Origin: an uncultured bacterium
GTDB lineage: Bacteria; Zixibacteria; MSB-5A5; JAABVY01; JAHJOQ01
Direction: 5' to 3'
Assembly: GCA_965369655.1 (NCBI GenBank)
Contig: CBDUQR010000001.1
Span: forward strand, 78,070 to 142,069
DNA: 64,000 bases
Made by a program: the position numbers and the translations under genes. The number at the start of each line of letters is the position of its first letter. Positions within the stretch are counted from its first letter, which is position 1. The notes under the pieces are model-generated. The model saw only the letters and a program-made list of their open reading frames with translations. It did not search any database and was not told the DNA's origin. Shown one piece after another: positions 4,028 to 57,567 of this stretch.

Positions 4028-4281
4028 AAGGACAAATGCTCCGATTGTGTTACTACTATACGCTCAAGATTCATCTACTGACTGGATTCCTGCCTTCGCA
4101 GGAATGACGCGATCTGTATGCTCTTGTGACAGCATAAACTCTCCTACACCAGTCCCATCTCTTTCATCATCGCCTTGATTTTTTGTGATGTGGCCGGTCT
4201 TGAACCTCTCGAGATTGACTGATTCAATTGTCCAAATGTATGCTAACAGCAATGCGCTGTCAATTTATCCCGATGGATGGA

Positions 4282-21934: not shown

Positions 21935-22177
21935 TAAGATTGGATTGGCTGTCTGTATTGCATTAGTGTGAATCGCATTTCACATTCCTGAACCTTCTCC
22001 AACCCGTTCTCACTTCCCCTTGATGCTGTTCACTGCTTGAACACCTGGGCTTGCAGTATGTATTTCAAAGAGTTGAGTCCTGATCATATCCGCTAAAAGC
22101 CAGCCCCAACTTCTAAGAGTATTGGGCACACGCGTTGCTCGACTATCTGAATGCGACAACACAATCAGGAGACATCA

Positions 22178-22554
22178 TGGAATGCTACTTCACATCCAAT
22201 CTGATTGATTCGGAATCAGACAATCACAACGCTTTGCTCTCGTTCGCTGTGCCGGAATACGGGATAGTGTTCAGGGCGCAGTTCTCCGGGAAAGAGACAG
22301 AGTGCGAATATGCTTCTCTCTTGAGTCTTCTTGAATTCGTCGAGATAAACCCTCAGCTTTTCAAGAACAAGACAGTCGAAATATACGGTGACAGCACTAT
22401 CGTGGTGAATCAGGTAAATGACAAGATGTATTGCAACAAGCAGCTCGAACCATTTCGCAAGATGGCTCAGTTGTTCAGAAAGAAAATACCATACGTTCTT
22501 AATTATATCCCACCCAAAGAAAACCCGGCCCAGAAGGATATCGCCGCGCCATAG
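22178..22554 (+). CDS. orphan RNase H-like (RVT_3-type) small protein
   Basis: YGIVFRAQFSGKETECEYASLLSLLEFVEIN...VEIYGDSTIVVNQVN...YIPPKENPAQKDIA lines up with the RNase HI core (E, D-S, ...ENxxAD). The first catalytic Asp position reads TSN instead of TDGS. The start at 22178 has caGGAGacatc upstream. The track ORF starts at 22135. Confidence 0.45.
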
Positions 22555-22560
22555 CTTCAC

Positions 22561-22652
22561 GGCTCCAGACAGAGCACGGTGGACGGCAGACGACCCCGCA
22601 AAGTCCTGAGTCTCGAAGGGCAAGTCCTGAGCTTCGAAGGATCTGCCCCTTT
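22561..22652. repeat. Y repeat module (copy E) with an internal 21-bp tandem duplication
   Basis: ggctccagacagagcacggtggacggcagacg... parallels 37113-37179. agtcctgagtctcgaagggca (22602-22622) is followed by agtcctgagcttcgaaggatc (22623-22643). Confidence 0.7.
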
Positions 22653-22680
22653 TCAGTCACAGTTGAATCGGCAGATGTGG

Positions 22681-22846
22681 AGAGGTAGTCTCAAAAGTAG
22701 GTCGTGTTCCGAACACGAGACACGAGTGTGAGAAACGCGACAAATATATCTTGTTGAACTACAGTCGGGTTTCTTGCAGGCTCCGCCTGCTGCGGAACAC
22801 CGACCTACTGAAGAACAGACCTTTTGGGACAGCCTCTGGACATCTG
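22681..22846. mobile_element. MITE-like 166-bp insert (copy E) in the palindrome, opposite orientation, with a gg/gg duplication
   Basis: Flanked by ggcagatgtgg (22670-22680) and ggacatctgcc (22847-22857). The termini are agaggtagtctc ... gggacagcctct. An internal inverted repeat gtaggtcgtgttccg / cggaacaccgacctac is present. Confidence 0.55.
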
Positions 22847-22950
22847 CCGAGCACGTGCTCGCAATGACAGCTTTATTTAAGTAGCTTCACTCAGTCATCC
22901 GGTGTTCAAATTCGATTGACTTCGACTGGGCGCCGCTCTACTATTCTGTT

Positions 22951-30465: not shown

Positions 30466-30725
30466 ACAGTTTCGATCCGCACAAAGTCAGTCACGCGGTT
30501 GTTCCAGCCCGACTACTATTGATTCGCAACTTAATGTAAACTAATGCATTTCGAAGCACTAAGTCAATCACAAAACGCAATAGGGCCGGGTGCAATCATC
30601 CGGGGTGCTTTTTGAAAAATTCAAACTGATCGCCATACTACAGTCCAGTAGCCCAGTAGCGCCTCACTCCTGCGTAACAAATAGCAGGTGTCGAGGACAC
30701 CTGCTCTACAAGAACTGTGACAGAT

Positions 30726-30830
30726 ACTGAGATCGCCACGTCGCTCCGCTCCTCGCGATGACACCGCCCGCTCTCGGCGGTCGCAAGAACTGCCGGAACG
30801 GACGCTTTGGGAACAACCTCCTCCGTACCC
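30726..30830. repeat. degraded composite repeat copy (X module plus tetraloop hairpin plus decayed right terminus) upstream of pth
   Basis: gagatcgccacgtcgctccgctcctcgcgatgacacc (30726-30762), then cgctctcggcggtcgcaagaactgccggaacgg, then acgctttgggaacaacctcc, which resembles the cttttgggacagcctctcc terminus. Confidence 0.6.
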
Positions 30831-30898
30831 CATCGCGGAAAAGCATCGAATCTGCTTGACAATTACCGCGCCATTTGTATCATTGGCTGCCGTATCTG

Positions 30899-37002: not shown

Positions 37003-37071
37003 ACCAGACGACGAATATGATCAGACCAGGAGAGGGAATGTTGAAGGAATCATTTCGGACACATACCTGCG

Positions 37072-37179
37072 GGATCGTCATCACGAGGAGCGGTAGCGAC
37101 GTGGCGATCTCAGGCTCCAGTACTGTGGGTGGCAGACGTCCTTGCAGAGTCCTGAGCCTCGAAGAGTCTGCCCCATTTT
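37072..37179. repeat. dispersed repeat modules X and Y (copy D)
   Basis: 37072-37112 is the reverse complement of the 30726-30762 module (gagatcgccacgtcgc...cgatgac). 37113-37179 (ggctccag...ggcagacg...agtcctgagcctcgaagagtctgccccatttt) parallels 22561-22652. Confidence 0.7.
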
Positions 37180-37183
37180 CGCT

Positions 37184-37419
37184 TGCATCGGCAGATGTCC
37201 AGAGGCTGTCCCCAAAGTGCCACTCAACTTGAGCGGAAAGCTGACCCTGTCGCTCCCGCGAAGGCGGGAGCCTATTTAACGATTACCCATTCAATAGATT
37301 CCCGTAATATCCTGAGCACAGCGAAGGGCCTGTGCGGGAATGACCTCGCTTTCTTTCGCAAGCATGAACACCAACCTATCAGACCTTTTGGGACAGCCTC
37401 TCCACATCTGCCGATGCAC
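37184..37419. repeat. 34-bp-class palindrome (tgcatcggcagatgt-cc / cc-acatctgccgatgcac) interrupted at its centre
   Basis: The left half lies at 37184-37200 and the right half at 37402-37419. The halves are reverse complements of each other. The central dinucleotide cc is present on both sides of the insert. Confidence 0.75.
37201..37401. mobile_element. MITE-like 201-bp insert with perfect 12-bp terminal inverted repeats (agaggctgtccc ... gggacagcctct)
   Basis: The insert sits exactly between the duplicated cc of the palindrome. It has internal GC hairpins (ctcccgc-gaag-gcgggag) and no ORF. Confidence 0.6.
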
Positions 37420-37517
37420 AGAATTCGGTAATGTTTAGTGTGGGGCAACTCGCCTTTTTCAATCTGCAGCAACAGATGATTTGACAGGTCATTGATGGTC
37501 TGTATATTGATGACCTT

Positions 37518-39719
37518 ATGGCGCCACTGATCGACAGGATGCGGACGGAACTGAACGATAGGCAGTTTGAAGCCGCAACTACGGTAGATGGTCCGCTTCT
37601 TATCCTTGCCGGAGCCGGTTCTGGCAAGACGCGGGTTCTGACCTATCGTGCCGCTTATCTTGTGTCCGACCGTGCCGTATCTCCCTTCAATATCCTGGCC
37701 GTGACTTTTACGAACAAAGCTGCCAGCGAGATGAAAGAACGGATGGAGACGCTTGTCGGTCAGGCGGTGAGAGATATGCAGGTGTCAACCTTTCATTCGT
37801 TCTGTGTCAGGATACTCCGGCGATACGGCGACAGGTGCGGGCTTCCTCGCGATTTCTCGATATACGATCAGGAAGATTCCCTGAATCTGATACGGCACTG
37901 CATGGAGGATCTGCTCATATCGCCGAAGTCGCATCCACCGAAAGTGATCCGTGAGTTTATTTCATCCGCAAAGGACAAACTGATAGGACCCGATCAGTAC
38001 GCCGAATCAGCGAAGGCGTATTTCAACAAGGTAGTGGCCAATGTATATGAATCGTATCAACGGCGGTTGGAAGTTGCCGCTGCGCTCGATTTCGACGATC
38101 TGCTCTGCAAGGCGGTCAGATTGCTTCTGGATCATCCGGAACTGCTCGAACAGATGCAGAATAGCTACAGATATATCATGGTCGATGAGTATCAGGACAC
38201 GAATCATGTGCAGTATCTGCTCGTGAAAAACCTCGCAGCACGCGACCGGAATATTTGCGTGGTCGGCGATGACGATCAGTCGATATACGGATGGCGCGGC
38301 GCGGAGATCAGAAACATCCTCGAATTCGAAAAGGACTTTCCGGGTTGCAGCGTGGTCAAGCTCGAACAAAACTACAGATCGACTAAGACCATACTCAAGG
38401 CTGCATCTAGCGTCGTCGGGAACAACCAATCCCGGAAATCGAAGACTTTGTTTTCCGAGGGTGACGAGGGCGACAAGATCACTCTGCTGGTTGCAGACAA
38501 TGATCGCGGCGAAGCGGAGATGGTCGCCGACAAGATCGAAGGATTAATCTCTGCTGATCGATTCGGTCGCAGGGAGATAGCGATTCTCTACAGGACTAAC
38601 GCGCAGTCCCGCGCACTCGAAGAGACGCTCAAGAACCGTTTCATACCTTACACGATTGTCGGCGGGCTGAGATTCTACCAGCGCAAAGAAATCAAGGATG
38701 TGATGGCGTATCTCAAGGTGATGACCAACCCTCACGATCTGATTTCACTCAGGCGCATAGTCAACACGCCCCCACGCGGTCTCGGCAAAGTTGCGCTCGC
38801 GAAAATCGAGAACATAGCGGTCAAAAAGAAGGTCGGGCCGATTCAATTGATACTGGATGACGACGATTATCTGTTCCTGCCAGGCAGGGCGAGAACCGGC
38901 TTGCGCCAGTTTGCAGTTATTCTGAGAACTCTCGTGACCGCAAAGGACGAAAAGGATCCAGTCGAATTGGTGAAGACTGTCATAGAGCATAGTGAAATAC
39001 TGCGCGAGATCGACAATGGTGACGCCATTGAAGCAGAATCGCGGCGAGAAAACCTTGATGAACTGGTGGCGGCGGTCGATGAATTCTGCCAGCGCAACGA
39101 GGATGCGACTATCGAATCGTTCCTCGAAGAGGTATCGCTCTACACCGACATAGACCAGTGGGACAACTCCATCGATTCCGTTACGCTGATGACGCTGCAT
39201 TCCGCCAAGGGACTCGAATTCCCCGCTGTATTCATCACCGGACTCGAGGAAGGTCTGTTTCCATTGGCGAAGTCGCTCGAAAGCGATGCGGAACTCGAGG
39301 AGGAGCGCAGGCTTTTCTATGTCGGCATTACCCGCGCCGAGAAGCTGCTGTTTATCGCGCACGCGAAAACGCGTCGGCGGTTCGGCGACATGCTCACGCT
39401 CGAATCGCGTTTCATATCGGAGCTGCCCGCCGATGTCGTCGAGATTGAGGAGAAGCTCTACACGCCTCGCGCTGTGTCGCATCGTTCATACCTGTCCAGC
39501 GAATCAAAGGTGACATCGTTCGATTCGGACACGGTTGATCCTGACGATACATACAGCTATCTGGAGGTCGGTCGATGGGTCACGCATCCAACCTGGGGAG
39601 ACGGCAGGATTATCGCACGGCGCGGTACATCAGACTCGACCGAGATCGACGTCATGTTTGAATATGTAGGCCGCAAGAAACTACTCGCCCAATATGCGAA
39701 CTTGCAGGTGAAAGAGTAA
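37518..39719 (+). CDS. UvrD/PcrA-family ATP-dependent DNA helicase
   Basis: LLILAGAGSGKTRVLTYRAAYL (motif I), DEYQDTN (motif II), VGDDDQSIYGWRGA, LEQNYRS. The C-terminus carries an extra domain of about 70 aa. Confidence 0.9.
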   Translation: MAPLIDRMRTELNDRQFEAATTVDGPLLILAGAGSGKTRVLTYRAAYLVSDRAVSPFNILAVTFTNKAASEMKERMETLVGQAVRDMQVSTFHSFCVRILRRYGDRCGLPRDFSIYDQEDSLNLIRHCMEDLLISPKSHPPKVIREFISSAKDKLIGPDQYAESAKAYFNKVVANVYESYQRRLEVAAALDFDDLLCKAVRLLLDHPELLEQMQNSYRYIMVDEYQDTNHVQYLLVKNLAARDRNICVVGDDDQSIYGWRGAEIRNILEFEKDFPGCSVVKLEQNYRSTKTILKAASSVVGNNQSRKSKTLFSEGDEGDKITLLVADNDRGEAEMVADKIEGLISADRFGRREIAILYRTNAQSRALEETLKNRFIPYTIVGGLRFYQRKEIKDVMAYLKVMTNPHDLISLRRIVNTPPRGLGKVALAKIENIAVKKKVGPIQLILDDDDYLFLPGRARTGLRQFAVILRTLVTAKDEKDPVELVKTVIEHSEILREIDNGDAIEAESRRENLDELVAAVDEFCQRNEDATIESFLEEVSLYTDIDQWDNSIDSVTLMTLHSAKGLEFPAVFITGLEEGLFPLAKSLESDAELEEERRLFYVGITRAEKLLFIAHAKTRRRFGDMLTLESRFISELPADVVEIEEKLYTPRAVSHRSYLSSESKVTSFDSDTVDPDDTYSYLEVGRWVTHPTWGDGRIIARRGTSDSTEIDVMFEYVGRKKLLAQYANLQVKE

Positions 39720-40125
39720 TTGGCAAGGACCACTGTGCGTCCAGAGAAGATACAGTGAATAGGCATACAAGATCGGCGAAGGTGATATCCCGTTCAGTTT
39801 GGAGAGAGAACACTCTCGGCAATGCTCAGAGGATATTCGGATTGGTTGAATCCAAACCCTTTAGCTCGGCCAGATCAGGATGAACCCTATACCTCAGCAC
39901 GCCGTCAATTGCAGTGGTATGTTCTGCTACAGCTTTGTATTCAGTTATCAATCGATCAAGAGCTGAAGGAACTCGCATCGTCCGTTCGACGATTGAACAT
40001 CCTTTCCTCGGCGACATCCACACGATTTCCTCCCGGTACCTCCCCTGCGAAGGAGAAACACATGGATAACGGTAATCATCTCCCAATGGAACCCAACGAG
40101 GTCGTACCGTGGGTGGCAGATGTCC

Positions 40126-40326
40126 AGAGGTTGTCCCATAAGGTAGTTTCGACGGGTCTTGGCGACGACGGAGTCGTCGGTGTGACCTGACGATCTTCTG
40201 TAAGCTGTTGCCAGGCATTGCTTCCATTTTCCGGCAGTTCATCGGTCGCTGATCCCGATCCCTGAGGGACACGTCCGCCTTCGGCGGACGCAAGAACAGC
40301 CGGAATGGATGCTTTTGGGACAGCCT
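40126..40326. mobile_element. MITE-like 201-bp insert (copy A) inside the palindrome ggcagatgt-cc/cc-acatctgcc
   Basis: The termini are agaggttgtccc ... gggacagcctct, flanked by ggcagatgtcc (40115-40125) and ccacatctgcc (40327-40337). The length is identical to copy D, but the internal sequence differs. Confidence 0.6.
40146..40200. repeat. 55-bp segment shared with 56249-56303 (two mismatches)
   Basis: gtttcgacgggtcttggcgacgacggagtcgtcggtgtgacctgacgatcttctg. It contains the hairpin cgacgac-gga-gtcgtcg. Confidence 0.75.
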
Positions 40327-40400
40327 CTCCACATCTGCCAAAATTGTCAATCCGAATTCGATTCAGAGCATGGAATTCAATTGGTCTGTCTCGGAAGGTG

Positions 40401-41219
40401 TTATTCACTGTAAGCTGTAGCATCGTAGTGATTATAATGGTCTTGATTTACCAGCTTGGATTTCTTAAGTAACTGAAAAAGCCCGAACTTCTCAACATAA
40501 GCCTTCAATTCTCTGTAGTTAGGTGTAAGGCAATAATAGAATATCATGTATTTCTCATCATCAGAAATCTGCGCTCTAACGAGAGTTGCGTAGAACTCCT
40601 TGTCGACAATGCTACTCCGATCAACAAACCACAATAGATGATAAAGGGTCTTGAAGTAATTGGATATGTCAAGCGGAAACCCACTCGAGAATTGGTTATG
40701 AGCTATCTCCAGAAGTTTCGTATCATCTGAGATTGAGGGTCCCATTTTTCGTACTGTATCATCATATTTCCATCGAAAACGACTGTACCATTTGTTGAAA
40801 CAAGCCTTTCCTTTCAAGCCCTCACTTCGATCCTCCAAATTCCGAACCAACTCATTAAACAAATCCATCAATTGAAAAAAAGTGTTCTCGAACTGCTGAA
40901 GACTAAGGGTTCTATTCTGCAACTGCATTTGCTCTCTTTGACCCTGAATCTCATTTCGTGTTAGCTTGAGTTCTTTCCGCTGCAAATGTAGATCTTGTCT
41001 CTGTAGATATATGGCGTAAATGAAGCCAGCAAATGCAAGTGCGGTGAAGAGCGCATTCGCTGCACCAAACATGTCCCCGAACTGGCCTCTATACGGCCAA
41101 TCTTCGGGCATAAAATGAATAACTGCCACCCAGTTGCTGAGCCAGATTAGGATTGCTACGACAAGCAATAGTGGTAGCAGCCACCTCTTTTCATTCTTCA
41201 ACTCATCCTGGCTATCCAT
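40401..41219 (-). CDS. N-terminal two-TM-helix membrane protein with coiled-coil and C-terminal globular domain (Abi-like architecture)
   Basis: Two N-terminal hydrophobic helices (WLLPLLLVVAILIWLSNWVAVIHF and FGAANALFTALAFAGFIYAIYL), a Gln/Leu-rich coiled coil, and a C-terminal domain of about 170 aa. Hand counts over 40441-40560 give about 34% G+C, against 52-60% in neighbouring genes. Confidence 0.45.
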   Translation of the reverse strand: MDSQDELKNEKRWLLPLLLVVAILIWLSNWVAVIHFMPEDWPYRGQFGDMFGAANALFTALAFAGFIYAIYLQRQDLHLQRKELKLTRNEIQGQREQMQLQNRTLSLQQFENTFFQLMDLFNELVRNLEDRSEGLKGKACFNKWYSRFRWKYDDTVRKMGPSISDDTKLLEIAHNQFSSGFPLDISNYFKTLYHLLWFVDRSSIVDKEFYATLVRAQISDDEKYMIFYYCLTPNYRELKAYVEKFGLFQLLKKSKLVNQDHYNHYDATAYSE

Positions 41220-41259
41220 GACAATCTCCTATCCAGTATTGAAGTCTTTTGCTGTGAGC

Positions 41260-41279
41260 GGCAGATGTGGACATCTGCC
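41260..41279. repeat. solo (uninterrupted) copy of the palindrome ggcagatgt-gg-acatctgcc
   Basis: It is the reverse complement of the empty form of the sites at 37190-37412 and 40115-40337. It lies in the 76-bp gap between two minus-strand genes. Confidence 0.75.
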
Positions 41280-41295
41280 GTGCACAGGGCAGAAT

Positions 41296-43326
41296 CTATC
41301 TACCTGCGGCGGATGTATCAGGCCACTCGCAATCATAGCCGACGCCCATCTCGACTTCGACCGGATGTTCCGTGTTGGTGCCATACTGCCGCCAGAGCTT
41401 GTTGTTGCTGGTGAAGTCATATTTTACAGGATATGTATCGTCTCCGCCAGTGTCGAGGAACAATCCGAGACACATGATATGATCGCGCAGTCCACCCCTC
41501 TTCCCTGCAACATTTGATCTGCCGAGTGTCGTAGCTGCGGTGACTCGATATATGTCGTCGCCCGACTTGTCCCAGAAAATACCGATGCCGTTCGCATTGC
41601 CACCACCGAGAGAGAGATTCGGCGCGTCATAGACGTCGTTGCCCTCGCAATCGATCAGTGTGCCGAGCGTAAAATCATGCCCCGCACCCTGCGCCATATT
41701 TTTAGTCGCCGTATAATGATCGTCGCCGGTGCTGTCGATCAGGATGCCGAGTCCGAAATGCGCGCCCGATCCCTGGACATACCACACACCGCGGTACTCG
41801 TCGTCGCCCTTGTCATCGGCGAGGATTCCAATCGCGTACCAGTAGGCGCATCCCTGTGCAAACAACCCTGCGGAATACTTGTCGTTTCCTTCGGCATCGA
41901 CCAGCATCCCGATGCCTCCGGCCCAGGAGTGCCCGTCGATGTAGTCGCCCCGTTTGCCAAATCCGACACCCTGCGCGAGATTCGAGTTGTAGTCTTTCGT
42001 CTGCGAGGCTGGGAACACGATATCAAGCGTGTCGGCATGGTAATCGTCGTCACCCTTCATATCGATCAGCATCCCCATGCCTTTCGTGAATCCGAATCCC
42101 TGCCCAAGCAGATACATATGGTAAGAATCATTGCCATCAAGGTCCGAGAGGATTCCGATACCGAATTGTCCCGCACCCTGCGCGCAGATGAACCCATCGT
42201 ACGAATCTGTCCCTGCCTTGTCGAGCAATGCGCCGACGCCGAAAAGCCCGACACCACCGGTCATATTGCGGCCGGAGTATATGTCGTTGCCATCGACATC
42301 CACAAGAAACGCATATCCGAACAGACCTGCGCCAAACGATGGTATCCCCTCACCGCTCGACTCGTATGTGTCGTCGCCACCCAGATCGATCAGGATCGAT
42401 ATCCAGTTCTCGATCGATCTGTTGGCGCCACCGCCTTCGTAGCAGTCATCGCCGCCAACATCGATTATGAGATAATACTCGTCGTCAGGGTAGTTCTGAT
42501 CGGACCCATCGTTAATGACAATCCTTCCGAGCGGTGTATCGTACTCGAAGGAGAAACTGTCGTCGAACGTCACCGCCGCGAGCGAATCTGCGGCATAATC
42601 GACAGCGCGCGCAAGATCCTGAACATGGGTATAGAGATATTTGAAATCAACAAGCGACGCGAACTCCTCGAGCGTGAAATCGATAATATCATCATCCGAA
42701 GCGAGCAGCAACTGCGCCCTGCCGTACATCTCAGAGAGATCATACTTCTCGGCAGCCTTCTCGAACGCTCGCGCGTGGTAGTGCAGGGAATCGACAGATG
42801 CGTAGATCAGGAGCGCGGCAATTAGCTGCAATTCATCAGGCAGGGTCGATACGCTTTGTTCGAGTGACACGATTTCATCTTCGGAAAGCGATCCGTTTCC
42901 TGTCGATTCAATCAGTCTCTCGATAGCGTTTGCGAGCGCGTATTGCTCAGCGATCAATGGATAGATTTCTTTCAGCGGATCCCCGATCAGGCCGCGTCGC
43001 ACGCTTTCATCGAGTCTGCTCGACGCGAATCCGATCAGGTTCTGCAGCCGACCCGCGTTGCGCTTGACGCTTGCTTTGTAGATGTTCGTGTAATGTTCGA
43101 TCTTGAAGAAGTCAGAGTGCAGCGTGTAGAACAGCGGCAGCACGAACCTGTCGCCGCCGTAGTTGGCCATGTCGCCGTAATCAAATGTCATCGACTCCCG
43201 CGTAAGCCCGACTTCAGAGAGAGCCTCCTCGAATGGATCGATGGACGCCTCATTCGTTTCGTCTCCAGCGAAAAGAGCCGCACTCAGAATCAGCAGTATC
43301 GGCGCGAGTATTCTAAGACTGAACAT
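41296..43326 (-). CDS. secreted Gly-rich repeat protein (about 12 copies of h-L-h-D-x-x-G-[ND]-D-x-Y, period about 23 aa; predicted beta-solenoid)
   Basis: Signal peptide MFSLRILAPILLILSAALFA. An alpha-helical N-terminal third, then repeats LIIDVGGDDCY, ILIDLGGDDTY, FLVDVDGNDIY, ALLDKAGTDSY, ILSDLDGNDSY, MLIDMKGDDDY, MLVDAEGNDKY, ILADDKGDDEY, ILIDSTGDDHY, TLIDCEGNDVY, IFWDKSGDDIY and LFLDTGGDDTY, each preceded by a GxGxxGxG stretch. Confidence 0.55.
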   Translation of the reverse strand: MFSLRILAPILLILSAALFAGDETNEASIDPFEEALSEVGLTRESMTFDYGDMANYGGDRFVLPLFYTLHSDFFKIEHYTNIYKASVKRNAGRLQNLIGFASSRLDESVRRGLIGDPLKEIYPLIAEQYALANAIERLIESTGNGSLSEDEIVSLEQSVSTLPDELQLIAALLIYASVDSLHYHARAFEKAAEKYDLSEMYGRAQLLLASDDDIIDFTLEEFASLVDFKYLYTHVQDLARAVDYAADSLAAVTFDDSFSFEYDTPLGRIVINDGSDQNYPDDEYYLIIDVGGDDCYEGGGANRSIENWISILIDLGGDDTYESSGEGIPSFGAGLFGYAFLVDVDGNDIYSGRNMTGGVGLFGVGALLDKAGTDSYDGFICAQGAGQFGIGILSDLDGNDSYHMYLLGQGFGFTKGMGMLIDMKGDDDYHADTLDIVFPASQTKDYNSNLAQGVGFGKRGDYIDGHSWAGGIGMLVDAEGNDKYSAGLFAQGCAYWYAIGILADDKGDDEYRGVWYVQGSGAHFGLGILIDSTGDDHYTATKNMAQGAGHDFTLGTLIDCEGNDVYDAPNLSLGGGNANGIGIFWDKSGDDIYRVTAATTLGRSNVAGKRGGLRDHIMCLGLFLDTGGDDTYPVKYDFTSNNKLWRQYGTNTEHPVEVEMGVGYDCEWPDTSAAGR

Positions 43327-43444
43327 ATTCCCTCCCGTTGTTGCGAATAGCAGACTCTACTCAACGGGATCGCCGAAGTCAAGCATTAACTCCGATTCCG
43401 ATCCTGAAAGGCTTGCCAAATAAGTCCGAAACCATCAAAGCATT

Positions 43445-43536
43445 GTCATCGCGAGGAGCGAAAGCTACGTGGCGATCTCATTGTTTATAAAATCGCAAAA
43501 ACACTGAGATTGCCACGCTTCGCTCGCAATGACGAC
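43445..43536. repeat. inverted pair of the X repeat module about 120-210 bp upstream of glnA
   Basis: gtcatcgcgaggagcgaaagctacgtggcgatctca (43445-43480) and tgagattgccacgcttcgctcgcaatgacgac (43505-43536) form an imperfect 32-bp inverted repeat around a 24-bp AT-rich spacer. The same module occurs at 30726-30762 and 37072-37112. Confidence 0.65.
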
Positions 43537-43655
43537 AACAAGGTTATCTTTACAAGCTCTGAACAAACATATCTCTTATCGACCTGACATTTTCGCTTGC
43601 CGAAAACCGAGATTTGTTTATATTAGTTTGATAATAATTTCACAAGGAGACCATT

Positions 43656-45190: not shown

Positions 45191-46864
45191 ATGTTCAGAG
45201 TCTTTTTCGCTATTTCCCTGGCATCGCTCACGATTCTCGTGAGTTGCAGTGGCGAAAATGAAACGCCGACTGTGACTGATACGATACCGCCACATGTGGT
45301 CTCGACAATTCCTCTTGCTGACGCTGATTCGGTTAGTATCAATACGGTGATTTCAGCAACATTCTCGGAGAATATCAATCCTGCTACGATTGACTCTACA
45401 ACTTTCATACTCGATATAACGCAGTCAGGAGAGCAAATCTCAAGTACAATAGACGTCGATGAACACACCGTCACTCTTGCTCCTTCAACTACGCTTATGT
45501 ATGACACTTCGTACACAGCCAGGCTGGTGAGTGGTATCACAGACATGGCAGGTAACGCGCTTCATGATGAATACTCCTGGTCATTTCGGACTTGCGATAG
45601 CAGTATGATTGATACGATACCGCCACATGTGGTCTCGACAATTCCTCTTGCTGACGCTGATTCGGTTAGTATCAATACGGTGATTTCAGCAACATTCTCG
45701 GAGAATATCAATCCTGCTACGATTGACTCTACAACTTTCATACTCGATATAACGCAGTCAGGAGAGCAAATCTCAGGTACAATAGACGTCGATGAACACA
45801 CCGTCACTCTTGCCCCTTCAACTACGCTTATGTATGACACTTCATACACCGCCAGACTTATGAGCCAAATCACAGACACAGCAGGCAACGAACTCCGTAG
45901 TGAATACTCCTGGTCATTCAACACAATTGGACGTAGCTCACCCGACACTGGCTGGTCACTCCGTGCCTCGGGTACCTCAGTCTACCTTACCGATGTTGTT
46001 TGGACCGGTGATGGGTTCATCGCTGTGGGAATAACCAGCACGGTGGTCACTTCTAGTGACGGGATTTCATGGCGGGCTTCACAAATCAGCGTTGAAGACA
46101 ATTACCTTGCCTCAATAGCTCATTGTGGAGACGCACTAATGATAGTAGGTTGGCATCAGCAATCATATCAACCTCGCACGTTTGTTTCCACTGATGGGAT
46201 ATCTTGGATTCCTGCTATCTCGTTCAGCGACAGTTCGAAAACTCTAATAGACGTAGCCCATACAGGAACACACTACATCGCTGTAGGAGGTTGGGGTGTC
46301 GCAATGGAATCACCCGATGGATTGCACTGGACAAGAATCATAGATCTCTGGGATGTGAGCGCCTTCAAAGCTGCATTGTGGCATGACAGCAAGCTATTCG
46401 CTGTAGGATATACACGCGATTACGATGATGACCTTTACCCATCTCCATACAGATCGGTCGTTTATACGTATGATCTGTTCACATGGTCGGAAGTGTGGAG
46501 ATCTGGCGACCTTCCATGTGACACTTGGCTTAACGATATTATACACACTGGAGATATGTTCATCGCAGTTGGTTTTGGTTCGACAGAGTACGGGGGTGGT
46601 TCAATAATCACCTCAACTGATGGTACGGCTTGGAAGTATCGCTATCCAGGTCAACACACATGCCACTATAGTGAAGTCATCCACGTAAGTGGTGTTACCT
46701 ATGTAGCCGGAAGCCAAGGAGTTGTGTTAAGAACTGATGATTTTACATCCTGGGAAGTCTGTCAGACGAATACAGACGAACATCTGAACGCAATAGCCTA
46801 TGGAAACTCTACAATAGTAGTTGTGGGGTCCAATGGTACTATCCTCACTTCACCATTGAGATGA
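45191..46864 (+). CDS. lipoprotein with two tandem Ig-like (Big/SbsA-type) domains and a C-terminal BNR/Ycf48-like beta-propeller region
   Basis: Lipobox LTILVSC. Two repeats of about 111 aa (DTIPPHVVSTIPLADADSVSINTVISATFSENINPATIDSTTFILDITQSGEQIS...). The C-terminal half has recurring S-x-D-G-x-x-W units. Confidence 0.6.
   Translation: MFRVFFAISLASLTILVSCSGENETPTVTDTIPPHVVSTIPLADADSVSINTVISATFSENINPATIDSTTFILDITQSGEQISSTIDVDEHTVTLAPSTTLMYDTSYTARLVSGITDMAGNALHDEYSWSFRTCDSSMIDTIPPHVVSTIPLADADSVSINTVISATFSENINPATIDSTTFILDITQSGEQISGTIDVDEHTVTLAPSTTLMYDTSYTARLMSQITDTAGNELRSEYSWSFNTIGRSSPDTGWSLRASGTSVYLTDVVWTGDGFIAVGITSTVVTSSDGISWRASQISVEDNYLASIAHCGDALMIVGWHQQSYQPRTFVSTDGISWIPAISFSDSSKTLIDVAHTGTHYIAVGGWGVAMESPDGLHWTRIIDLWDVSAFKAALWHDSKLFAVGYTRDYDDDLYPSPYRSVVYTYDLFTWSEVWRSGDLPCDTWLNDIIHTGDMFIAVGFGSTEYGGGSIITSTDGTAWKYRYPGQHTCHYSEVIHVSGVTYVAGSQGVVLRTDDFTSWEVCQTNTDEHLNAIAYGNSTIVVVGSNGTILTSPLR
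45278..45943 (+). repeat. tandem duplication, 2 x 333 bp, within the lipoprotein gene (first 176 bp of each unit identical)
   Basis: The units at 45278-45610 and 45611-45943 were compared base by base. The first difference appears at offset 176 (a/g), and divergence increases towards the 3' end of each unit. Confidence 0.85.
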
Positions 46865-56209: not shown

Positions 56210-56248
56210 TCAACTACTCCTCTTTGCAAGACTTGCAAAATATAGGTT

Positions 56249-56303
56249 GTTTCGACAGGTCTTGGCGACGACGGAGTCGTCGGTGTGACCTGGCGATCTT
56301 CTG
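56249..56303. repeat. 55-bp segment shared with 40146-40200, part of a degraded repeat copy (56240-56420)
   Basis: The segment is identical to the 40146-40200 copy except for two positions. It is followed by cgccttcggcgaacgcaagaactgccgaaac, which matches 40276-40306 and 30768-30797. Confidence 0.75.
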
Positions 56304-56552
56304 CATTCTGTTGATTGACATAGGTTCTATCTATCGGCAGTTCACACGCTCGCCTTCGGCGAACGCAAGAACTGCCGAAACAGGTACTTATGAGACAATC
56401 TTTTTTCTTCTACCATACTCTTGCGTAATACGAACGGTGATTCCACGCGCACAATCAAACCGGCACGCCGACCTTTGTCAAGCTGTTTGCCCCGATTGCC
56501 CGCAATCAGATTTGGCTTGCGAAGCGGAAAGCTATTCGCATCTTTCTGATAA

Positions 56553-57567
56553 CATGTTGCATTTCACAAGAATGATCACAGCGCTCGCTCTCTTGACAGT
56601 TGCGGCAGTCTGCATCAACACAGCCTGCTCGAATGAGCAGGATGTCATCAGGGACCGTCCCAGACAGACCCAGATATGGAATTACCCCGATGATTTCAAG
56701 CCGTCTCACATCACTACTGACGATGACGGGAATCTCTGGGGACTGTTCGTCTCACGGAGGTTCTCAGGCAAGGAGAGCTTCTGGGCGGTGCGATCTATAG
56801 CGGATAGTGAATGGAGCGACCCGATACTACTGATGAACGCGTATCACTTCACTGAGTTGAAGTTTGAAATTGCCAAAGGTCTGCTTCGCCTGACATTTAT
56901 CGAGATCGACGAGGATTACTTCTACGACTACGATAGCTATCTCGATAGAGCGCCGGAATTCCCCGATACTGTCGTCGTCGAGTTGCGCCTTGACGATCTT
57001 ACGAGAGACAGAGACAGGGACGGCCTTCCCGACTTGCTGGAACGCGAGATGCTGCTGTCGAGCAGGCTGCCGGACAGCGATGCCGACGGCAAGCGGGACG
57101 ATGTCGATTTCTGTCCGCTTGGCGTTCCAACATCAGGAAACAACAGACTCGATATTTACAGGACTGCTCTGGTTCACCTGATGCAGCTTGATGACATCAG
57201 CAACCTCAGCCCGGTAAAAGACACAGCCTGGACCAGGTTCTACGGCACTTACTATATCGATGAGCCAACAATCGTCTACGTGGCATTTCCCGGAGAACCG
57301 GTGCTCCCGGAATTGATCGATCTGCCAATCGTTCTCATTCAGGTCAGAACGCCGATGTATTTCGGCAGCAAGCCACAATACGGATCATTCACGGGAGGAA
57401 TCGTGCCGCACCTGATCTTCTACAGGCCGGAAACAGACATCTTCGGGAAAAGCGCGACGATGAAGCTGGAACTTATCAAGCGTGTGCACAGGCGCGAATC
57501 GGCTACGATGCACTTCGCGAAAAGTGGCGAACAATGGGTCGTGACACAGGTAACACAGGATGACTGA
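56553..57567 (+). CDS. secreted hypothetical protein with thrombospondin-type-3-like Asp-rich calcium-binding repeats
   Basis: Start chosen at MLHFTRMITALALLTVAAVCINTAC (signal peptide). Contains DRDRDGLPDLLE...DSDADGKRDDVDFCP. The track ORF begins at 56224 but its first 110 codons run through the repeat element. Confidence 0.4.

Follow-up and report, generated by a model that had tools for sequence, protein, structure and literature searches.

In a window of 64,000 nucleotides (nt) from contig CBDUQR010000001.1 of an uncultured Zixibacteria bacterium (coordinates below are window positions), the long intergenic gaps are occupied by families of hairpin-forming repeats. The region is probably a mosaic of elements of the repetitive extragenic palindromic (REP) type, in which the main GTG-tagged hairpin foot serves as REP for a dedicated Zixibacteria REP-associated tyrosine transposase (RAYT). 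The evidence comes from the anatomy and polarity of the repeats, from their distribution in Zixibacteria and from the linkage of REP and RAYT gene in related genomes. An original prediction, made from the letters of the window alone, had seen a modular repeat family and read its stable hairpins as possible RNA elements. Its account of the modules is right. The inverted-repeat termini and their polarity are missing from that account, and the organising principle, a polar tagged hairpin foot as the REP of a RAYT, was overlooked.

Anatomy and polarity of the GTG-tagged foot

The defining unit is a foot hairpin that reads 5'-GTG-NN-C-GGCAGATGT-CC-ACATCTGCC-G. The foot alone, with nothing between its arms, is the 20-nt palindrome at 41260-41279. 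Together with its tag it forms the short REP at 41254-41285, which folds as RNA with -17.7 kcal/mol (z -4.6) and is located 16 nt past the stop codon of a gene for a 676-amino-acid (aa) protein and 40 nt ahead of the start of an AbiC-like gene, both on the minus strand. The 9-mer GGCAGATGT occurs eight times in the window against 0.40 expected occurrences, namely at the six ends of three long elements and in both halves of this palindrome. A terminal 23-mer has five matches with at most three mismatches, with 0.00 expected. The long termini are placed in two groups by the repeat finder, one at 22816-22850, 37380-37414 and 40307-40341 and the other at 22663-22698, 37183-37218 and 40108-40143, and the two groups pair as inverted repeats of 28-37 nt with 83-97% complementarity. 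The short REP and the long elements are as follows.

41254-41285, minus strand: short GTG-tagged REP; the tag and the two terminal tips directly joined, reading GTGCAC-GGCAGATGT-CC-ACATCTGCC-G
40109-40339, plus strand: long split REP; tag GTGGGT (40109-40114), foot, CC/CC internal loop, 13-bp body stem, two compound hairpins
37190-37412, plus strand: long split REP; CC end on the left, inverted repeat extending to TGCATC...GATGCA
22670-22854, minus strand: long split REP; CC end on the right, tag GTGCTC (22849-22854, read on the minus strand)

The polarity of the ends becomes clear when the window is compared with related loci. These L-numbered loci (e.g. L147) are genome or metagenome stretches that were fetched around pattern matches; the related genomes were read as such fragments, about 1.3 Mb in total. 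Among 105 ends from the window and the related loci, 61 read GGCAGATGT-CC-AGAGG and 44 read GGCAGATGT-GG-AGAGG. At the CC ends, position -6 is G in 50 cases, position -5 is T in 53, position -4 is G in 50 and position -1 is C in 48. The GG ends share the C at -1 only and have no GTG tag. One CC end and one GG end are combined in 26 of the 36 complete long elements. Because the ends are polar and no direct repeat flanks them, the CC is found at both junctions on one strand and the external GTG-NN tag is one-sided. The same polarity is found for the short form, as 20 of the 21 palindromes encountered incidentally in loci fetched for the long termini have a GTG tag at the same distance on the CC strand. 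Lineage variants of the palindrome preserve the pairing (GGCACATGT/ACATGTGCC, GGCAGACG/CGTCTGCC and GGCAAATGT/ACATTTGCC). The unit is thus a short extragenic palindrome in many copies, with 21 incidental genome copies and at least 120 metagenome loci from a scan in which the tagged short palindrome was the sole selection criterion. It has an unpaired 5' tag on one strand only, as REPs do, with GTGN and a 2-nt spacer instead of GTAG.

RAYT genes flanked by the foot

A probe search identified remnants of Y1 transposases (Pfam Y1_Tnp) beside elements in two genome loci. The sequences used for tblastn and related searches (E. coli RAYT, IS608 and IS200) served as probes only; the conclusions on RAYTs rest on the recovered proteins and their NCBIfam and Pfam scores, not on the probe sequences.

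In at least six contigs, three of them assigned to Zixibacteria, the short palindrome flanks a RAYT gene in inverted pairs. The RAYT genes lie 10-90 nt from the palindrome, and its copies are inverted with the tags pointing outwards (L147 and L177; in L089 on the upstream side). One REP of the inverted, outward-tagged pair in L147 is located 11 nt past the stop codon and the other 41 nt ahead of the start codon. L177 has one REP downstream and two upstream of the RAYT gene, L089 has one 66 nt upstream, and the palindrome of L118 lies beside a RAYT remnant. The same arrangement is observed in L209 (with two RAYT genes), L210 and L211, all assigned to Zixibacteria. Each of the RAYT genes of HGW-Zixibacteria-1 has GTGGGC-GGCAGATGTCCACATCTGCC on one side and an inverted copy on the other, which is decayed at one gene. 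Three tandem REPs are found upstream of the RAYT gene in GCA_040756055.1 with an inverted one overlapping its stop codon, and the RAYT on a third Zixibacteria scaffold is accompanied by the REP variant GGCAAATGTGGACATTTGCC-GCCCAC.

The flanked proteins score 99-107 bits with the NCBIfam model NF047646 (REP-associated tyrosine transposase), for which the cut-off is 80, and they match Pfam Y1_Tnp. With the NCBIfam IS200 model they reach 16-21 bits, under the cut-off of 55. The HUH motif (SHLHAL) and the tyrosine motif YIHNNP are visible in the RAYT sequences. Among 345 RAYT homologues at E<=1e-10, every organism name supplied is Zixibacteria. Since the palindrome flanks RAYT genes in inverted pairs, the repeats are REPs with a cognate RAYT. 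Two further RAYT families of Zixibacteria, to which the Y1 remnants led, have flanking REPs of their own that are built alike; these read GTGNN-CGCAGGGGC-TGT-GCCCCTGCG in one family (L082, L083, L007) and GTAG-GGCAGAACC..GGTTCTGCC in the other (L086, L087, L055).

Two of these loci deserve a description in their own right. L209 (956-7525; HGW-Zixibacteria-1, PGXB01000043.1) contains two paralogous RAYT genes 5.5 kb apart, flanking a block with gyrA and methyltransferase genes. A third paralogue is found on another contig of this genome, and a fragment of an integrase core (rve_3) abuts one of the RAYT genes. RAYTs are usually single-copy in a genome, so several copies in HGW-Zixibacteria-1 are unusual; Zixibacteria, an uncultured phylum of the FCB (Fibrobacteres, Chlorobi and Bacteroidetes) group, has at least one genome with at least three RAYT paralogues. 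In L055 (1900-2552; metagenome-assembled genome (MAG) AUK044), a RAYT pseudogene with only its C-terminal half intact lies about 370 nt from a long element. Its N-terminal half is replaced by tandem 22-nt repeats GGAGGAGGATCGGGAATGACGG and hairpins of the CCCTCCGC type.

Long elements with split foot arms

The three long elements measure 179 bp (22670-22848), 223 bp (37190-37412) and 225 bp (40115-40339). They end in terminal inverted repeats of about 29 nt, GGCAGATGT(CC/GG)AGAGGYTGTCYCAAAAG, and 125-205 nt of other hairpins are placed between the two foot arms. From the ends inwards, each consists of a foot of 9-10 bp (10-15 bp in the folds), a conserved 2x2 CC/CC internal loop, a body stem of 13-17 bp (AGAGGYTGTCYCAAAAG) and a branched cargo. 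The CC/CC loop sits where the short REP has its CC loop. As single-stranded DNA, the 40115 element folds with -64.2 kcal/mol (z -7.5) including the 2x2 CC/CC loop, the 37190 element with -57.9 kcal/mol (z -7.2) and the 22670 element with -47.7 kcal/mol (z -8.1). All of these folds, with z-scores from -7.2 to -8.1 relative to shuffles, are built of foot, CC/CC loop and body stem.

The cargo is of three kinds, namely REP dimers with a CGTC tag, a second GTG-tagged REP type and compound hairpins. The cargo of the 40115 element includes GTCCGCC-TTCG-GGCGGAC at 40273-40289, and this cargo type is also found, with compensatory stem changes, in L002, L011, L026, L031, L037, L048, L055 and L066. The 37190 element carries a CGTC-type hairpin at 37249-37271 (TGTC-GCTCCCGC-GAAG-GCGGGAGC-CTA) and an inverted hairpin partner (about 37300-37347) with an insertion in its loop. 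The 22670 element contains the second GTG-tagged hairpin (minus strand, about 22764-22810), which is repeated in the Dive96 MAG. With this hairpin, all three long elements hold other REP-like units inside a RAYT-type foot. The interior may be inverted relative to the CC/GG polarity, as both orientations are seen in L002 and L055 of the same MAG. A tandem array in L034 (5220-5889; Zixibacteria MAG AUK044) has units of about 214 bp, in which a short REP variant TTTTGTGGGC-GGCAGACGCCCTCGTCTGCC is nested in a long element; it indicates nesting of a REP in a REP followed by local amplification.

The architecture of the long elements invites comparison with ordinary miniature inverted-repeat transposable elements (MITEs), that is, derivatives of insertion sequences (IS) with a DDE transposase that are mobilised in trans through their 29-nt termini. 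In a variant of this explanation, a MITE with 17-nt termini (AGAGG...CCTCT) would have inserted in the CC loop of a REP and duplicated the CC. Long terminal inverted repeats (about 29 nt here), lengths of 140-360 bp, intergenic location and variable interiors are all typical of MITEs. Also in favour are the body arms, which occur with more than one foot, and the CC, which one strand shows at each junction as if 2 bp had been duplicated. However, no flanking direct repeat is present in 29 copies, where the flanks are unrelated or extend the inverted repeat. The conserved external GTG tag is located at one end only, and the REP found beside RAYT genes is identical to the outermost 9-10 bp. A second foot, CGTCAGGAA, is combined with the body arm AGAGGYTGTCYCAAAAG in other copies, where the internal loop is 3x3 and purine; the junction triplets are then AGG/GGA and not a direct repeat, which suggests that the unpaired junction is a structural feature and not a target duplication. 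No transposase open reading frame (ORF) is found between or next to the termini in the 1.3 Mb of loci, recurrent neighbour ORF families are not transposases, and the loci examined contain no parent IS in which these termini enclose a transposase gene. We consider a MITE origin quite unlikely. As candidates for an autonomous copy, we inspected terminal pairs 1-3 kb apart (L046, L011, L063), which hold ordinary genes and no transposase. Clustering of all ORFs of the genome loci in search of a recurrent neighbour gene returned large surface-protein and housekeeping families only.

Repeats across the window and across genomes

At every site given in the original prediction the sequence does carry the modules, far above chance. 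Its statement that almost every long intergenic gap is filled also agrees with our census, which combined a crude ORF tiling and the genes called in further assemblies of this strain. All six gaps of at least 300 nt hold repeats (22555-22950, 30466-30874, 37003-37517, 39720-40400, 43327-43655 and 56210-56571). The repeats are confined to 22-57 kb of the window, except for a copy at 4086. Several ORFs had been taken as artefacts of reading through the repeats, and this is very probably correct. ORF 37183-37431 lies within one element, ORF 22216-22623 is antisense to a gene whose synteny is kept in a related MAG, and the gene with an ORF start at 56224 begins at 56572 according to the gene caller of another assembly. 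None of the artefact ORFs tested has a Pfam match.

The mosaic family reaches far beyond the window. A scan for the exact pattern in one genome per species (596 Gb) gave 76 loci in species-representative genomes, where about 17 matches are expected by chance; the metagenome scan adds at least 120 loci. The matches in unrelated taxa diverge right after the pattern, which fits the chance estimate. The remaining matches belong to MAGs of Candidatus Zixiibacteriota and, in a few cases, to MAGs with the label Ignavibacteriales or 'bacterium'. With so many loci in many MAGs, a local segmental duplication confined to the 64 kb, or an origin from fragments of rRNA, tRNA or an intron, is refuted and retains practically no probability; copies lie beyond the window, in which no tRNAs and no Rfam matches were found. 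Copy number is uneven. Dive96_bin4.201 has 30 contigs with matches, many of them at contig ends, other MAGs have 2-6 matches, and the complete 3.98-Mb chromosome OY969724.1 has 3. Complete long elements are present in MAGs labelled 'uncultured Ignavibacteriales' (L011, L016, L030, L054 (CAYQDB01), L051 and L065); this means either that other FCB lineages besides Zixibacteria have the family or that the bins carry a wrong label or are chimeric.

Some intergenic sites are occupied in more than one species. The window is itself a member of the Zixibacteria group with these repeats, as its segment 19675-24361 shares synteny and 77-81% nucleotide identity with a Dive96 contig. At the site orthologous to the 22670 element (L042), a long element has the same position and orientation but a different cargo. 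A promoter-like sequence TTGACT-17-TACTAT downstream of the orthologous element is kept in both species. The region upstream of uvrD in a distant relative (L125) contains a REP cluster that includes the short palindrome. The REP clusters upstream of uvrD (L125, 3330-3560) and of holA (L042, 2885-3448) differ in their members, among which are a GTAG-tagged TCAGGAGTC, a GGCAGGT REP and the short GTG REP; such sites could be either REP 'nests' of long standing or targets that are hit repeatedly. Within the strain, no gain or loss of repeats was seen, with same-strain contigs from four other samples being 99.8-100% identical.

Occupation of the same intergenic sites in different species would also be expected if the repeats were binding sites of a host protein (a nucleoid protein, gyrase or a regulator) that had spread by recombination with no transposase involved. 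The strong conservation of the body arm AGAGGYTGTCYCAAAAG across feet and genera is in line with this explanation, and REP clusters of E. coli bind IHF and gyrase. The one-sided GTG tag, the strand polarity and the flanking of RAYT genes are nevertheless left unexplained by binding sites, and no candidate protein has been identified. We regard this possibility as very unlikely.

Modules X and Y and the CGTC-tagged hairpins

The other repeats of the window belong to the two modules named X and Y and to hairpins with a GAAG or TTCG tetraloop.

37125-37174, plus strand: core of module Y copy 2; GTGGGT tag, foot GGCAGAC...GTCTGCC-CC, 28-nt loop; span first given as 37113-37179
22579-22649, plus strand: core of module Y copy 1; GTGGAC tag, foot GGCAGAC...ATCTGCC-CC, duplicated 20-nt loop segment; span first given as 22561-22655
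37077-37111, plus strand: module X; (C/T)GTC-AT-N-GC GAGGAGC..GCGACGTG GC-N'-AT-CTC
43445-43536, both orientations: head-to-head dimer of module X; X on the plus strand at 43445-43479, shortened X on the minus strand at 43508-43536, 28-nt AT-rich spacer, tags outward
30728-30833, minus strand: module X (30728-30762) with the decayed right half of a 40115-type element (remnant 30762-30833)
22851-22868, minus strand: fragment GCACGTGCTCGCAATGAC resembling the 3' part of module X; abuts the tag of the 22670 element; a weak likeness read by eye that nhmmer did not detect
56244-56415, plus strand: cargo of a 40115-type element with neither foot nor body arms; 84-95% identity to 40141-40302
4086-4108, minus strand: free-standing REP of the CGTC-1 type; GTC-AT-TCCTGC-GAAG-GCAGGA-AT-CCA; absent from the earlier list of repeats

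Two of these are remains of long elements. The remnant at 30762-30833 keeps a hairpin and a degenerate body arm CTTTGGGAACAACCTCC and has lost its foot. The copy at 56240-56420 had been described as lacking its termini, and indeed 56244-56415 corresponds to the inside of the 40115 element, with the termini absent; its cargo consists of two compound hairpins, including CGCTCGCC-TTCG-GCGAACG.

Module Y (22561-22655 and 37113-37179) has the same tag design as the short REP and a similar foot, with a loop of 28 nt in copy 2. Copy 1 starts 7 nt past the stop codon of ORF 22135-22554.

Hairpins of the form (C/T)GTC-ATTCCCGC-GAAG-GCGGGAAT-CCA were found in 86 copies, including compensatory variants. 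Complete long elements contain 25 of them, 27 lie beside long elements truncated by contig ends, and 34 are free-standing, often as head-to-head pairs. CGTC-tagged REPs were defined by a CGTC or TGTC tag, a stem of 8-9 bp that starts with AT, a loop of 4-5 nt, a CCA tail and a predominance of head-to-head dimers (PMC3733652). The tag, an 8-bp stem with AT start, a 4-nt loop, the CCA tail and the head-to-head dimers are all present here, and the copies at 4086-4108 and 37249-37271 of the window are counted among these hairpins. Judged by these sequence features, the tetraloop hairpins fit the published family.

The full form of module X, for which copies were collected with nhmmer, reads (C/T)GTC-AT-N-GC-GAGGAGC-GAA-GCGACGTG-GC-N'-AT-CTC. 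The N/N' pair covaries across 11 distinct copies with zero exceptions (UA 5, CG 4, AU 2), and the strand with GTCAT folds with -13.0 kcal/mol as compared to -7.9 kcal/mol for the opposite strand. The apex is replaced by a hairpin of the GTCCGCC type in some copies. The foot has only 5 bp, the upper stem is imperfect with a conserved purine-rich internal loop GAGGAG/GACGTG, and the tail is CTC. Module X may at best be a CGTC-like candidate, a divergent relative. The tetraloop hairpins, and module X as far as it resembles them, would thus be independent repeats of the CGTC-tagged type that occur both free-standing and as cargo.

Functional RNA elements

According to the original prediction, the modules could be terminators, mRNA stabilisers or small RNAs. 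Taken as the primary explanation, this means that repetition reflects function and not mobility. The hairpins are stable, have GNRA- or UUCG-like loops and show compensatory stem changes between copies, and several of them are located just past stop codons or between co-directional genes (22579 after ORF 22135-22554; 41254-41285). The elements lie either between an upstream stop codon and a downstream promoter-like site (22916, 30856 and 37481) or, as at 41254-41285, between co-directional genes. Stabilisation of upstream mRNA by REPs is described for other bacteria (PMC3733652). REPs there act from positions of this kind, and an effect of the window elements on mRNA stability is possible.

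The proposed RNA roles were not borne out by our searches. The hairpins are not followed by T-tracts and are thus not classical terminators; a terminator scan found 21 sites against 16.5 expected in shuffles, and among the REP feet and tetraloop hairpins only a weak site at 37334-37349 scores as an intrinsic terminator. The suggested comparison with Rfam gave no match at the gathering score, and none of the matches up to E<=5 coincides with a repeat. The repeats are found in either orientation, also between divergent genes in promoter regions (30728, 43445-43536, 56244). Hairpins formed by DNA would show compensatory changes just as well, and the RAYT linkage points to propagation at the DNA level. 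A primarily RNA-level function is in our view unlikely, although it and the REP reading are not exclusive. Outside the repeats, a sub-threshold match to RF03531 (n00280, 'C. difficile sRNA included into helicase gene') was obtained at 39270-39369 on the plus strand, within uvrD; its score is 37.2 bits (E 0.012), while the gathering score is 65.2. The conserved coding sequence of the helicase is the probable reason for this match.

Proposed mobilisation by a RAYT

RAYTs are HUH/Y1 enzymes related to the TnpA of IS200/IS605. Enzymes of this group, such as those of IS608 and ISDra2, act on hairpins of single-stranded DNA and leave no target duplication, and the E. coli enzyme TnpA-REP reportedly acts on hairpins in single-stranded DNA in vitro. 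We propose that the GTG-tagged foot would fold to a hairpin on single-stranded DNA, for example on the lagging-strand template. The Zixibacteria RAYT would recognise the 9-10 bp foot together with the unpaired 5' GTG tag and the unpaired CC, and it would cut and rejoin the strand, by which the element may be copied or moved without a target-site duplication. The long elements would be the same hairpin with its two arms split apart and other repeats inside. They would present the same determinants to the enzyme, since their stem is broken by the CC/CC mismatch exactly at the position of the loop in the short REP, and could be mobilised through their foot.

Several observations weigh against the assignment of the region to a REP/RAYT system. 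No RAYT gene is present within the 64-kb window, and the RAYT of the window's own genome was not located. The sole RAYT from the same sample series (P0001, on a 1.3-kb contig) belongs to another family, and the REP type at its flanks does not occur in the window. In the loci examined, no long split form flanks a RAYT. The tag, GTGN with a 2-nt spacer, is non-canonical compared with GTAG, and the conserved body arm AGAGGYTGTCYCAAAAG has no account under a REP model. No pair of an empty and a filled site was found; contigs of the strain from other samples are identical in the repeat regions, and the sole orthologous site in another species is also occupied. Finally, the loci examined beyond the window contain no copy of module Y, and its fold is not significant by z-score relative to shuffles.

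Comparison with known systems

The closest likeness is to the REP/REPIN-RAYT systems of Escherichia, Pseudomonas and Stenotrophomonas (PMC3116915, PMC3733652). Both have extragenic palindromes of 20-40 nt in high copy number, which carry an unpaired 5' tag on a single strand and leave no target duplication. In both, inverted and outward-tagged copies flank a Y1/HUH gene, a lineage has several REP/RAYT pairs, and orthologous intergenic sites stay occupied. The known tag is GTAG, whereas Zixibacteria have GTGN and a 2-nt spacer; REP variants with a GTGG tag or a dinucleotide spacer have been reported (PMC3733652). A REPIN (REP doublet forming a hairpin) is made of two complete REPs. In contrast, each end of the Zixibacteria long form is one arm of a single REP and not a whole palindrome, and between the arms lie the CC/CC loop, a body stem of 17 bp and a cargo of 90-170 nt. 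The long hairpin nevertheless presents the REP foot and could work in a REPIN-like manner.

The GAAG hairpins, with their stem ATTCCCGC, match the CGTC-tagged REPs (Neisseria dRS3, Rickettsia RPE-4 and RPE-6; PMC3733652) feature by feature, and module X is like these in its tag, in its start with AT and in a 3-nt tail that is unpaired. A difference is that many copies in Zixibacteria are cargo inside RAYT-type hairpins. Composite REPs are also described from other bacteria. In Pseudomonas putida and P. fluorescens, inverted repeats of degenerate GTAG-1 units are joined to unrelated stem-loops, and in Anabaena GTAG-15 dimers are located inside long palindromes (PMC3733652). These resemble the Zixibacteria elements in that REPs are fused to or nested in other palindromes and that several families form intergenic mosaics. 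There, the REP lies inside or beside another palindrome, whereas in Zixibacteria the REP arms are outermost and the rest is in the loop.

DDE-type MITEs (Correia, RUP and Nezha) and the pneumococcal BOX are alike in size, terminal inverted repeats, intergenic site, folding into a long hairpin and modularity. They create target duplications (e.g. TA) and share their termini with a parent IS, but neither was found in the Zixibacteria loci examined. With IS200/IS605 the repeats have in common the Y1/HUH chemistry, recognition of an imperfect hairpin on one strand, a short motif outside one end and no target duplication. IS200/IS605 have two different subterminal hairpins in direct orientation and an internal enzyme, whereas the Zixibacteria transposase is encoded outside the repeats. 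Composite REPs and mosaics have thus been described before, and the protein is already named by an NCBI model; the unusual trait is the composite split-REP architecture with other REP families as cargo. In the literature, no paper was found with these repeat sequences, and none was relevant for the combination of Zixibacteria, transposase and repeat.

Neighbouring genes

Between uvrD and glnA (40401-43326), two minus-strand genes encode an AbiC-like protein (Pfam putAbiC, E 1.4e-16) and the 676-aa protein, which has no Pfam match. The pair is bracketed by the long element, the short REP and the dimer of module X, and may from its gene content be a small defence islet. Genes lie on the plus strand at 10.9-39.7 kb and on the minus strand at 40.4-56.2 kb; at this switch (about 39700-40400), the cumulative GC skew has a peak of 0.27 at 40 kb. 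This is either a point of replication convergence or merely a local operon boundary. Two tandem 333-bp units with 93% identity are found at 45273-45905, in a surface-protein gene with Big_5 domains (ORF 45191-46864). The same-strain assembly L001 has one unit fewer, and its protein has 446 aa instead of 557 aa. The copy number of this in-frame repeat is thus polymorphic.

Cargo transport and meaning for Zixibacteria genomes

The nesting of repeats suggests a more general role for the split foot. To our knowledge, CGTC-tagged REPs are widespread in bacteria and have no known transposase. How they spread was left open by those who defined them (PMC3733652). In the Zixibacteria loci, head-to-head CGTC dimers sit in RAYT-type hairpins in dozens of copies, and so they may hitch-hike. 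A speculative extension, which we hold to be possible but doubtful, is that the split REP is a general vehicle: any sequence placed between the arms of a foot recognised by a RAYT, above the CC/CC loop, would be copied along. If this were true, it would explain the spread of the CGTC-tagged REPs. The occurrence of the body arm with at least two feet would then mean that the cargo-bearing body is the stable unit and that its foot is swapped to that of an active RAYT.

REP/RAYT systems have mostly been studied in Proteobacteria. With the present analysis, a REP/RAYT system with several co-existing pairs is documented in Zixibacteria, a phylum known only from metagenomes. For such genomes the repeats have practical consequences. 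They generate spurious ORFs in the window, which is relevant for annotation, and their presence at many Dive96 contig ends indicates that they probably fragment short-read assemblies. The composite architecture of the long elements offers a test of how CGTC repeats with no transposase of their own spread.

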